From sequence record PX246731.1: a DNA stretch of 64,000 bases, one strand, 5' to 3'. Source of the DNA: a phage. The position numbers and the translations under genes are program-made. Positions 26,204 to 28,359 of the stretch are shown piece by piece (positions within the stretch are counted from its first letter, which is position 1; each line of letters begins with the position of its first letter). Under the pieces are notes generated by a model. That model saw only the letters and a list, made by a program, of their open reading frames with translations. It made no database searches and was not told where the DNA came from.

Positions 26204-26434
26204 TCTGGTAGGTGGCTCAGAAGCTGCTGCTAGGTGTGGTAGTGTTTATAGTCCTGATGCTACTACTGGTCAGGATTATAGACGTGTCGGCTCCATACAT
26301 AGCTTTTATCATCACTGTCATTATCCTGTGGAAATGCAGTGGTAAACACGGTGGTGACAAGCCGCCAGAGTAACAACAACCGAACCAGTGTGCAGGAATA
26401 CTCTCCCCTGTGCATTGGTTCAACTGAGGCCAAT

Positions 26435-26605
26435 ATGAACAAATTTACTATTCACTGGTTTAATGGAAAGGTTAGTTCTTTCATGGGTGGAGAACCTGCT
26501 GAAGGAAAGAAAGCATTTCACATTGAATCAGAAGGCTGCAAAATCTTAGTACCGTATGTTTGGTATAAAGATGGTGAAGTAGAAGCATTAAAAAAGAGTA
26601 GTTAA
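26435..26605 (+). CDS. hypothetical small protein
   Basis: 56-aa ORF from an internal ATG with tgagg RBS (ORF track 26339..26605). Confidence 0.3.
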   Translation: MNKFTIHWFNGKVSSFMGGEPAEGKKAFHIESEGCKILVPYVWYKDGEVEALKKSS

Positions 26606-27185
26606 TATCGTGAAGGGTTCTGTTAGAATCCTTTGAGATAGGAACTCCTATCATAACCTTTCTTAACTTAATCTTTGCCGTATGGCACTGACGCTAGGGT
26701 TGATGCCCATCCGTCAGTTAGACTATTTTAAGAATGGGTTATCACAGAAAATGTAAAGCAACATTCGGGTTAATCAATGGCCTCTCCCTATATGGGCCAT
26801 TTCTGAATCTTAGGCTATATCCCAAAGGTTAGTATCTTTGGGATAAGGCTTCAGATCCCTTATCAAACTAACGCTCATGTTGAGCACAACATTAACCCTT
26901 AATGTCGGATAGTTCATTAGGCTATTCCTCCAACATCGAGATGTTAGGTCTTACATGTAAGCTAAAACATAGGGTAAAGAGGGACTTGTCATCCCTCCCC
27001 TATTATGACATCCTATCAATGAGTACATTAAGCTAACGTGCGGAGGTTTACACTGTAGCCGGTGTAGATAGAGAAGACGGCAGGATAGCTACCTGTGCTT
27101 AGTGTACTCTTTGATAGGTTGTGCTATCAAAGTCCAGACGATATCTGAGTGACTTTAAAAACAGATGGAGCCAGGTGGAATCCCT

Positions 27186-27261
27186 GGCAATTAATTCCGG
27201 TGTAGGTACTAGTGTCGTGCACGGCATGAGCATTCTGGTTCGAGTCCAGACGCCGGAACCA
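27186..27261 (+). tRNA. tRNA-like gene 1 (3' half well defined; 5' boundary approximate)
   Basis: T-arm tctgg-ttcgagt-ccaga (27234-27250), 3' acceptor strand cgccgga (27251-57), discriminator A, encoded CCA (27259-61). A complementary tccggtg lies at 27196-27202, only 63 nt upstream, so the cloverleaf could not be completed by hand. Confidence 0.45.
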
Positions 27262-27263
27262 AT

Positions 27264-27387
27264 TACCAGTTGCACGAGATGGCTTGACATGTTCAAGTTT
27301 GGACTAAGTATGACACCGCTAGATTGGAGGGCTGCTGCGGTAAGCTATAGACTCCAACCGGGGGTTCGAATCCCTCACTGGTAACCA
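27264..27387 (+). tRNA. tRNA-like gene 2 (possibly carrying an insertion; boundaries approximate)
   Basis: T-arm ggggg-ttcgaat-ccctc (27360-76), 3' acceptor strand actggta (27377-83), A, CCA (27385-87). The only perfectly complementary 5' strand, taccagt, is at 27264-70, giving about 121 nt, longer than a canonical tRNA. Confidence 0.4.
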
Positions 27388-27439
27388 ATTCAAAGTAGCA
27401 TTGTGATAATCCATCCCGGAGTTCAAAGGCCAAACATGG

Positions 27440-27514
27440 AGCAGTGCTACTTTGAATTAGAAGAATTATGGCGGGTCTGGTGAAGTAGATGGGGTTCGAT
27501 TCCCTCCGGTGGGT
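27440..27514 (+). tRNA. tRNA-like element 3 (T-arm/acceptor-like 3' half; uncertain)
   Basis: ggggttcgattccctc T-arm-like motif at 27491-27506 followed by cggtggg; no convincing 5' acceptor strand found by hand. Confidence 0.3.
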
Positions 27515-27581
27515 AAAACCACTAGCGTGCTTGGTGCACGAATAAGACTTAATACTGGTGGTTCGATTCCATCCCCCGTTA
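27509..27581 (+). tRNA. tRNA-like element 4 (uncertain)
   Basis: T-arm ggtgg-ttcgatt-ccatc (27557-73), 3' acceptor-like ccccgtt (27574-80); partial 5' complement ggtgggt at 27509-15 (73-nt span). Candidate anticodon hairpin at 27525-41 with UGG in a 7-nt loop. No encoded CCA. Confidence 0.35.
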
Positions 27582-27890
27582 TTTGAAGTCGCCAGGTACT
27601 TATGGCAAACGGGTAGTAACGAACTAGTCATTCGTCAAACGCCCACCTTATTATGAGTCAGCAAGAACGCCTTCACTTAAACTTAAACAAAAAAAAGCTT
27701 AACGCAATAATTATGTAGGGGTATGTAAGGATTGCGAAGAAGGAGCCAGTTAAAGCCTGGCATGACTCAACTTATTAATAGAGAACATAGTCCTGATTGC
27801 ATTGCACTCTAAAGACAATGCCGGTGAGACAGTCCGGCACTCTAATTATTGTAAACATACAAGACTCGTTAGCTGCGTTAAAGCTACTAA

Positions 27891-27918
27891 GTCCCTCTTC
27901 GGAGGGACTTTTTTATTT
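27891..27918 (+). terminator. Rho-independent terminator
   Basis: Stem gtccctc(27891-97)/gagggac(27902-08) with 4-nt loop, followed by ttttttattt. Confidence 0.7.
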
Positions 27919-27978
27919 GAGTATTAATAAGCGCAACCATGTTTAAGTACAAATTCAAACCACTCTATGAGGCTAATA

Positions 27979-28359
27979 ATGGCAACAGTAAGTAAAGAAG
28001 CAATCGAATCTAAGATTAAGAGCGTTTACTATTTCAATGAAGCTGATGCAGTGAAGTCTGCATTCGTTGACCCATCCGCACTTCCAGCAGATGATTTGAC
28101 TAACCTGGGTCTGACAACCCATTGCATTATCATCTTGGAAAATGGCTTCAAAGTTGAAGGTGTCTCTGCCTGTGTAGACCCGGCTATCTATGATGAGCAA
28201 AAGGGTCGTCAGTATGCATATGAAAATGCATTCAATAAGATTTGGGAATTAGAGGGTTACCTGCTACGTCAGGCACTGCATGAGAAAGAAGAGACTGCTA
28301 AGGCTCTGGCTTCCTTTGCAGAAAACAATACCTGTGATGGTGGTGGTTGTACAATCTGA
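27979..28359 (+). CDS. hypothetical protein
   Basis: ATG 27979 with gagg RBS (ORF track 27967); C-terminal CDGGGC; isolated plus-strand gene between the tRNA region and the late block. Confidence 0.45.
   Translation: MATVSKEAIESKIKSVYYFNEADAVKSAFVDPSALPADDLTNLGLTTHCIIILENGFKVEGVSACVDPAIYDEQKGRQYAYENAFNKIWELEGYLLRQALHEKEETAKALASFAENNTCDGGGCTI

Follow-up and report, generated by a model that had tools for sequence, protein, structure and literature searches.

A conserved, previously unannotated RNA hairpin in the tRNA-like RNA operon of an N4-family coliphage

Introduction

The species 1 and 2 RNAs (rnaC and rnaD) of phage T4 lie within its transfer RNA (tRNA) cluster, back to back with the tRNAs; both are short RNAs other than tRNAs that carry the annotation small stable RNA, and their function is, to our knowledge, still unknown after decades. 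In rnaC a large interior unlike that of a tRNA is framed by an acceptor-like stem and a T-arm (CCGGGTTCGAATCCCGG). Here we describe a comparable locus in phage record PX246731.1, a G7C-like Gamaleyavirus and coliphage of the N4 family (Schitoviridae), of which a stretch of 64,000 nt (the window; coordinates count from its position 1) was analyzed. The element in question is a 72-nt block (27387–27458), the ends of which form a long inverted repeat in the non-coding stretch bounded by gp47.2 and gp48. Like rnaC and rnaD, it is found in the tRNA slots of a cluster and on the tRNA strand, and the rnaC architecture matches that of the adjacent tRNA-like element E2 (27264–27387) and of the long-stem elements of phages N4 and G7C. 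The T4 RNAs differ in having no terminal helix of 17–26 bp, whereas the block has neither T-arm nor CCA. Homology to rnaC and rnaD was rejected at the level of sequence: BLAST of 26600–28000 against the T4 tRNA region returned only short T-loop matches, the best of which on the rnaC T-arm (window 27362–27374 and 27492–27526) had E = 0.2–0.8, and one better T4 match (E = 0.018) fell in the T4 trna.2 spacer, away from the tRNA-like elements.

Two groups of processing substrates are also relevant. Ribonuclease (RNase) III stalks, such as the stems flanking 16S and 23S ribosomal RNA (rRNA) in the E. coli rrn operons and the T7 early-mRNA sites (e.g., R1.1), extend for about two helix turns, often with an internal loop or mismatch, and are used by coliphage T7 to punctuate a long transcript. 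They resemble the present locus in that a long helix flanks variable cargo in a (here putative) polycistronic precursor; the window helix, by comparison, has only 17 contiguous bp, and its cleavage is proposed. We know of no RNase III site described between tRNA-type RNAs in a phage tRNA operon. The RNase P substrates 4.5S precursor and phage P1 C4 RNA are long hairpins that abut the cleavage site and are freed from larger transcripts by the tRNA-processing machinery. In our case the base of the hairpin likewise falls exactly at a CCA/leader junction, but no 3′ RCCA follows the helix.

YrlA RNA (Rfam RF02553) combines a long stem formed by its ends with a tRNA-like T-arm domain. This is the architecture of the N4, G7C, and IME11-type relatives, whereas the window copy lacks the tRNA-like domain. 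The relatives score 17–20 bits on RF02553 (gathering threshold 69) as weak partial matches at T-arm regions. Just one of these, L006 2701–2777 (17.3 bits), coincides with part of a long-stem element, namely with the T-arm of N4 H2, and the other two are on ordinary tRNA genes; the window itself has no match to this family. We know of no Rsr/Ro60 partner in these phages or in typical E. coli; no search for one was made. In the literature on non-coding RNAs of N4 or Gamaleyavirus we found no account of the hairpins, only tRNA counts in genome papers. The element is a genuine, conserved, and previously unannotated RNA structure of a familiar kind, that of the structured spacers or small RNAs of phage tRNA operons.

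Sequence and predicted folding of the hairpin

A repeat search placed the arms, both 17 nt in length, on the plus strand at 27387–27403 (AATTCAAAGTAGCATTG) and 27442–27458 (CAGTGCTACTTTGAATT), 38 nt apart and 94% complementary, in agreement with the original prediction of a 14–17 bp stem and a 38-nt loop. The 17 pairs comprise a perfect Watson–Crick core of 14 bp (27387–27400/27445–27458) and three more, one of which is a U·G wobble. When G·T is counted as a pair, 18 of 18 positions are paired over 27387–27404/27441–27458, and the extended stem has 20 of 22 with two mismatches. The core is the longest, and the sole 13- or 14-bp, perfect inverted repeat in the window (loop ≤130 nt); in 200 dinucleotide-preserving shuffles the mean number of 14-mer inverted repeats was 0.02, and only four shuffles contained any. 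The stem had been thought to start immediately after the CCA of E2. Since that CCA occupies 27385–27387, the two overlap by one base, the first A of the 5′ arm being the last of the CCA.

Folding of 27380–27465, which had been put forward as a check, gave −28.1 kcal/mol, whereas shuffled sequences averaged −14.5 (z = −4.6), and none of 200 shuffles did as well. The hairpin is retained in the minimum-free-energy fold of the wider region 27130–27600. Fold prediction and motif comparison of the 38-nt interior, or cargo (27404–27441, plus strand), revealed a predicted inner 5-bp stem (TCCAT, 27410–27414; ATGGA, 27436–27440) and a motif, CCCGGAGTTCAAAG (27415–27428), which resembles a T-loop. The 3′ arm is followed on the plus strand by an AU-rich spacer at 27459–27469 (AGAAGAATTAT; family consensus RRAAGAATTAW) that ends at G(+1) of the next element, E3 (27470–27581).

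A stable intergenic hairpin in a phage family known for hairpin promoters might be read as a transcription terminator, an attenuator, or a hairpin promoter of the N4 virion RNA polymerase (vRNAP). The stem is, however, followed by AGAAGAATTATG with no U tract, and a terminator scan found nothing at 27387–27470 and a real terminator at 27889. The vRNAP promoters of N4, situated at the early genome end, are DNA hairpins with stems of 5–7 bp and loops of 3 nt, as against 17 bp and 38 nt here, and we consider all three identities extremely improbable. A tRNA, the mark of which is a cloverleaf with D-arm, anticodon arm, and T-arm, was rejected as well: neither ARAGORN nor Rfam at its gathering threshold called one. 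Nor did it score at the gathering threshold with any curated Rfam family; over 27387–27458 there was no tRNA match even at E ≤ 10. Rfam searches of the window and of two relatives (N4 and NAN33P5), both gathering and permissive, yielded nothing for the hairpin, and only ordinary tRNAs pass in the relatives. For the window as a whole ARAGORN reports zero tRNA genes and Rfam nothing at gathering score.

Conservation in related phages

Comparison with relatives, as advised in the original prediction, showed that the block is present or absent as a unit. BLAST with the 72 nt found 28 phage records, in every one of which the match spans residues 1–72 (73–97% identity). These are coliphages or Shigella phages, their taxonomy lines, where read, give Gamaleyavirus, and the operon is the same throughout; in this region the window is 94–95% identical to St11Ph5 and U1G. 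The left neighbor of the block varies between phages (E2-CCA, E1-CCA, another CCA end, or the M2 hairpin; these elements are described below), and the right neighbor also differs. No match was found among 5,426 E. coli genomes, and the arm pattern occurs at no other locus in the window. The idea of a small insertion is therefore sustained in the sense of a discrete presence/absence cassette, but not in that of a transposable one. A miniature inverted-repeat transposable element (MITE) or other transposon, for which several dispersed copies would be looked for, was rejected, the block occupying a single operon locus.

Alignment A1 contains 21 distinct copies from GenBank phages and IMG/VR contigs. 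An IMG/VR scan with the 5′-arm pattern gave 14 loci, of which only four were real and two of those already known; the 3′-arm plus spacer pattern, which is too AT-rich, gave at least 120 chance matches, with no true homologue among the matches listed. Anchoring on gp48 instead recovered 12 N4-like IMG/VR loci, three of which (L157, L159, L160) added new copies of the element, while L156 is a duplicate contig. Over the 17 stem pairs of A1, 94.1% of cells are paired, compared with 19–41% when the partner is slid by 1–3 columns. The homologues thus have the repeat in paired form, whereas its absence or lack of pairing had been named beforehand as the finding that would count against it. Four pairs (5 cells) are changed on both sides, a value matched in no more than one of 500 shuffles. 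At pair 15, 9 copies have U·G and 12 have C-G, an alternation that fits an RNA helix, and in the phiG17-type copies the top pair changes from G-C to C-G, a position that is gapped in the alignment and hence was not counted by the covariation tool. In PhAPEC7 four consecutive lower-stem pairs are broken, two of which are restored by compensatory changes in UViG157.

The first 14 nt of the 5′ arm are identical in 19 of the 21 homologues. The 3′ arm varies at 10′ and 11′ (T to C or A), so that most copies are mismatched there: 14/21 show A·C or A·A at pair 7, and 5/21 are unpaired at pair 8. Because of these mismatches the family consensus is a 6-bp helix, a 2×2 internal loop, and an 8–9-bp helix, and the window copy is unusually perfect. 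The AU-rich spacer is present in nearly all copies.

Between the same arms there are six unrelated cargo types of 38, 38, 41, 46, 52, and 86 nt. The motif CCCGG-N-R-TTYAAAG is common to three otherwise different types and missing from the other three, and RNAalifold predicts no conserved pairing within the loop. The 86-nt cargo (NAN33P5, IME11, UViG160) contains a T-arm with compensatory changes of its own (GTGGGG/CCTCAC vs GTAAGG/CCTTAC). In the cargo of PhAPEC7 (L016 1633–1718) and UViG157 (L157 2594–2679) a T-loop-like motif, GGAACTCGAACCC, is found on the opposite strand; recombination between the arms could have turned the interior around. Taken from the alignments, these data show a helix evidently under selection as a helix, with the interior freely exchanged.

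The same data bear upon a DNA-level role. The repeat could form a cruciform, act as a recombination hotspot by which cassettes are shuffled, be a homing endonuclease target or the scar left by one, supply the terminal inverted repeats of a MITE, or bind a protein as a palindromic site, the last of which had been suggested for it. The presence/absence polymorphism with sharp cassette boundaries at the repeat would fit, as would the HNH endonuclease genes nearby in G7C and ZQ2, the RuvC-like resolvase gene gp46 upstream, and the possible inversion in PhAPEC7 and UViG157. A protein-binding site on DNA is not supported, nevertheless, the arms lying 38–86 nt apart with unrelated sequence in between, since operator half-sites are not separated by such variable spacers, and the U·G wobbles and compensatory changes point to an RNA helix and not to cruciform DNA. 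Loops of 38–86 nt also disfavor cruciform extrusion, and a MITE is contradicted by the lack of other copies in the window and of any in the E. coli genomes, as well as by the invariable operon slot. For these reasons a DNA-level element is very unlikely.

Related long-stem elements

A covariance model, R1, was built from A1; the N4 and G7C elements were outside its training set. R1 matched N4 at L006:2629–2753 (34 bits, E = 9e-5) and G7C at L018:1893–2016 (38 bits, E = 9e-6), in both cases on the plus strand only, and the training copies score far higher on plus than on minus. The N4 and G7C hairpins share the stem base CCAATTCG...CGAATTG and are paired at 25/26 and 26/28 positions, respectively (stems of 25–26 bp), the window copy having 17 contiguous pairs. 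Both occupy the slot that the block has in the window, in N4 after E1-CCA and in G7C before E3. Each encloses a small hairpin and a T-arm (TTAGGTTCGAATCCTAA) which abuts the 3′ arm, as in tRNA; the inner hairpin exhibits a compensatory change between the two phages (GAAGT/ACTTC in N4, GGAGT/ACTCC in G7C). In N4, G7C, IME11, and NAN33P5 the module encloses a tRNA-like domain bearing a T-arm.

The window contains a second, paralogous long hairpin, M1, at 27008–27122 on the plus strand, with arms ACATCCTATCAATGAGTACATTAAGC and GCTTAGTGTACTCTTTGATAGGTTGT, a stem of 22–26 bp, and an interior of 63 nt. Its arms resemble those of the block (CAATGAGTACATT vs CAAAGTAGCATT). Alignment A2 (10 phages) has six M1 pairs with changes on both sides, and pairing in 94.1% of its cells; M1 is retained in N4, KP8, Jgk1, NAN33P5, and others, together with a conserved mismatch and a conserved U·G. 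More distant N4-like contigs, the gp48 of which is 67–69% identical, have no R1 match and carry a different long hairpin abutting tRNA-Asn: in L163 (2250–2357) and L165 (190–298) the stem has 21/23 pairs (CTTATTAATTAGG...), and its 3′ end abuts the first base of the tRNA. Helix lengths in the Enquatrovirinae loci examined cluster at about 17–28 bp. From M1, the N4 and G7C elements, and the distant contigs, long helices packed against tRNA ends seem to recur in the Enquatrovirinae tRNA operons examined. These comparisons show the block to be a member of a family of long-stem modules that fill tRNA-sized slots in the operon.

Membership in such a family raises the question of whether the block is a decaying relic, that is, a pseudogene of a long-stem tRNA-like RNA of the N4/G7C/IME11 type that has lost most of its interior and persists by recent common ancestry alone, with no function of its own in the window phage. 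This phage has lost every intact tRNA carried by its relatives, inspection by eye allows the window-type loop to be lined up with the N4 element over its T-loop and 3′ T-stem region, and the close relatives show no both-sided changes. Decay is difficult to reconcile, though, with a stem that is 94% kept, with compensatory changes, across copies whose interiors are beyond alignment. The window copy is moreover among the most perfectly paired, its flanking spacer is conserved too, and short cargo occurs in at least three separate types, indicating that the short form has been tolerated or selected repeatedly. In view of these points we regard the relic reading as improbable.

Possible function

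We tentatively propose, at slightly less than even odds, that the repeat provides the stem of a plus-strand RNA hairpin, conserved as a cassette in a tRNA/tRNA-like operon, and acts as a precursor processing stalk. Such a processing role is favored on account of position, helix length, and stem conservation. The operon would be transcribed as a polycistronic precursor of tRNA-like RNAs, and the stem would form after transcription, directly against the CCA of E2. The helix would then serve as a double-stranded stalk cut by a host enzyme, probably RNase III. RNase P may act at the neighboring acceptor stems (U at −1, G at +1; ATTAT|G before E3), and RNase E may trim the AU-rich spacer at GA|AUU, a site that fits the known preference of this enzyme. 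Trimming of the ends by 3′ exonucleases would complete the process. The cuts would separate E2, which keeps its 3′ CCA, from E3, which keeps its 5′ leader, and would release the apical cargo, in this phage presumably a reduced 38-nt remnant in which the T-loop-like motif alone is kept.

RNase III is the favored enzyme because the family helices measure about 17–28 bp, because internal mismatches such as the conserved one at pair 7 are typical of phage RNase III sites like T7 R1.1, and because a conserved stalk around variable cargo mirrors the rRNA processing stalks. Helices of about 17–28 bp are cleaved by E. coli RNase III and are longer than hairpin stability alone would need. An RNase III site is a double-stranded helix of about two turns (roughly 20 bp), and shorter minimal substrates exist.

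Several observations weigh against this proposal. At 17 bp the helix is at the low end for RNase III. Plus-strand transcription, strand, and cleavage are all matters that we infer. The arms are near-palindromic, so that the minus strand pairs about equally well, and counting wobbles does not settle the strand (21 unpaired cells on plus, about 15 on minus), leaving the plus-strand assignment to be suggested by context and R1 scores. The 5′ arm is near-invariant while the 3′ arm gathers uncompensated A·C mismatches. The mismatches at pairs 7 and 8 across copies indicate that a perfect helix is dispensable, and the 5′ arm may have a sequence-specific role. Finally, the 15 close short-cargo copies are without a single both-sided change; the covariation is due to a small number of divergent copies, namely those of KP8, UViG157, and the phiG17 type.

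The main rival of the processing stalk is an independent RNA species, small, stable, and about 72 nt long, released like a tRNA by RNase P or RNase E at its edges. Its function would reside in the loop motif CCCGGNRUUCAAAG, a T-loop mimic, the stem contributing stability only; it might, for instance, serve as decoy or sponge and so occupy a tRNA-binding enzyme of the host or a defense nuclease that targets tRNA. The block is indeed tRNA-sized (72–75 nt) and sits in a tRNA slot, with CCA-AAUU on its left and the conserved spacer on its right; CCCGG-N-R-UUYAAAG is retained in three otherwise different cargo types; the larger relatives have genuine T-arms with compensatory changes; and the stable species 1 and 2 RNAs of the T4 tRNA cluster provide a precedent. 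Yet the cargo is the least conserved part, with six unrelated types, three of them without the motif, and with no conserved loop pairing predicted. No CCA is encoded after the helix, and a stem of 17 contiguous bp (20/22 extended) is, on established knowledge, unlikely to evade E. coli RNase III. We consider a stable RNA possible, if on the unlikely side.

A more inclusive reading, which we hold to be doubtful, takes the block as the minimal representative of a hitherto undescribed small-RNA family in phages, whose members could act as tRNA mimics or decoys. This family would be defined by a long terminal helix (base CCAAUUC...GAAUU), exchangeable cargo, and often a tRNA-like domain that has a T-arm and lacks the D-arm; its members occur in the three Enquatrovirinae genera examined (Enquatrovirus N4, Gamaleyavirus, and Kaypoctavirus KP8). 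Together with E1, E2, E3, and odd tRNAs (Ile-AAT, Cys-ACA), it might target tRNA-modifying or tRNA-processing enzymes or a tRNA-targeting defense. The RNAs could in that case be neither processing signals nor translation tRNAs, and the importance of the long-stem family would grow if its members were functional mimics.

Phage tRNA clusters are usually annotated by their tRNA counts, and this region with zero detectable tRNAs is still dense with structured RNAs that evolution keeps, among them a family of long hairpins that the model phage N4 shares. Should these be RNase III stalks, as we favor, they would show how precursor transcripts of tRNA-like RNAs are punctuated in a coliphage. Should their cargo be functional, they would join the T4 species 1 and 2 RNAs as candidates for the long-unexplained small RNAs other than tRNAs in phage tRNA operons, an issue to which work on tRNA-targeting defense systems has given new life. 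In practice the consequences are modest: the hairpins could be made into an Rfam-style family, and annotators should avoid placing open reading frames (ORFs) across the stretch.

Genome organization and neighboring non-coding elements

Upstream of the repeat are gp46 (RuvC-like), gp47, and the small gp47.2 ORF, which ends at 26605; downstream are gp48 (27967–28359; Pfam Phage_gp49_66) and the minus-strand vRNAP gene, which has its own terminator ahead of the repeat region. The non-coding stretch corresponds in relatives to a variable, mosaic tRNA cluster in which all tRNAs are on the plus strand. Compared with loci L001–L020, the window has between 26606 and 27966 no intact tRNA, only tRNA-like RNAs, whereas relatives have one to five: Asn, Ser, Thr, and Pro in N4; Tyr, Asn, Pro, Gln, and Ile in Jgk1; Asn, Pro, Gln, and Leu in KP8; and Ala(CGC), Cys(ACA), and Ile(AAT) in ECBP1 and Bp4. 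The anticodons of the Gamaleyavirus cluster (Ile-AAT, Cys-ACA, Ala-CGC) are unusual. A strong plus-strand intrinsic terminator found by the terminator scan (27889–27910; 27889–27915 as annotated here, AAGTCCCTCTTCGGAGGGACTT then TTTTT) closes the non-coding RNA cluster just before gp48; it is also the terminator portion of weak small-RNA matches in the permissive Rfam search.

The elements are ordered M1, M2, E1, E2, 72-nt block, AU-rich spacer, E3. In pairwise BLAST the relatives differ from the window by exact insertions or deletions of tRNA-sized blocks, with breakpoints at ~27006, 27120/27130, 27197, 27255–27264, 27375–27387, 27458–27474, 27577–27586, ~27650, 27770–27780, 27835, 27860, and 27920–27932; examples are tRNA-Ala inserted at 27006 in St11Ph5 and tRNA-Ile(AAT) at ~27779 in ECBP1. 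Short motifs, CCA-ATT and (R)RAAGAATTAWG/YTTATTATG, recur at the junctions, and the ATTATG at the end of the spacer is found again at 27002–27007, 27651–27656, and 27711–27716. Its ATG was rejected as a start codon with an upstream Shine–Dalgarno-like AGAAG, as it is AAG in many relatives and the resulting ORFs would have 6–22 codons. Two longer ORFs across the stretch, one of 112 aa on the minus strand (27293–27631) and one of 87 aa on the plus strand (27121–27384), match no PHROG family, and relatives have them in frameshifted or truncated form; a coding reading was likewise dismissed.

The flanking elements had been called tRNA-like in the original prediction. Acceptor stems and T-arms can be read in the sequence, but neither ARAGORN nor Rfam recognizes the elements as tRNAs. 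E2, a predicted fold of 124 nt on the plus strand, has the acceptor strands TACCAGT (27264–27270) and ACTGGTA (27377–27383), a T-arm (GGGGGTTCGAATCCCTC), discriminator A, the encoded CCA, and an interior of ~90 nt. The KP8 copy carries two compensatory changes in the acceptor stem (TTACTGGT/ACCAGTAA). E1 (27196–27261, plus strand, 66 nt) has a 7-bp acceptor stem, T-arm, discriminator A, and encoded CCA; it has no anticodon arm, a hairpin of 5 bp with a 4-nt loop taking the place of the D and anticodon arms. It is annotated as tRNA-Undet in some records.

E3 (112 nt, plus strand) is predicted to fold with two T-arm-like hairpins and is without an encoded CCA; a permissive Rfam search gave a weak 15-bit tRNA-Sec match for 27466–27581. 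Unannotated copies, ~80% identical, are located between tRNA-Met and tRNA-Arg of the T4-like phages VR25, TH22, PEi20, and CkP1 (E3-like locus in the T4-like set: L005 2501–2592), with compensatory changes in at least two hairpins. E3 is a structured RNA common to N4-like and T4-like phages.

M2 (27131–27192; AGTCCAGACGATATCTGAGTGACTTTAAAAACAGATGGAGCCAGGTGGAATCCCTGGCAA) is a 60-nt element that is ~88–97% identical in N4, in unrelated siphophages (Salmonella phage 9NA and many Klebsiella phages), and in prophages of 15 of the 5,426 E. coli genomes. E1 and M2 are 92–96% identical to their N4 counterparts, well above the genome-wide similarity. M2 is always intergenic, has no Rfam match, and forms a hairpin with compensatory changes in 9NA (GCCAGG/CCTGGC vs GTAGG/CCTAC); it is a widely traveled non-coding element.

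Three further hairpins were observed. One lies within the gp47.2 ORF at 26382–26421 and is strong, with a perfect 15-bp stem and a 10-nt loop, and another strong one is found in the non-coding stretch at 26812–26851 (17/18 pairs, 4-nt loop). The third, a T-arm-like hairpin (TATCGTGAAGGGTTCGAATCCTTTGAGATA) at 26606–26640, directly follows the gp47.2 stop codon, so that the cluster may begin with a further tRNA remnant or tRNA-like element.

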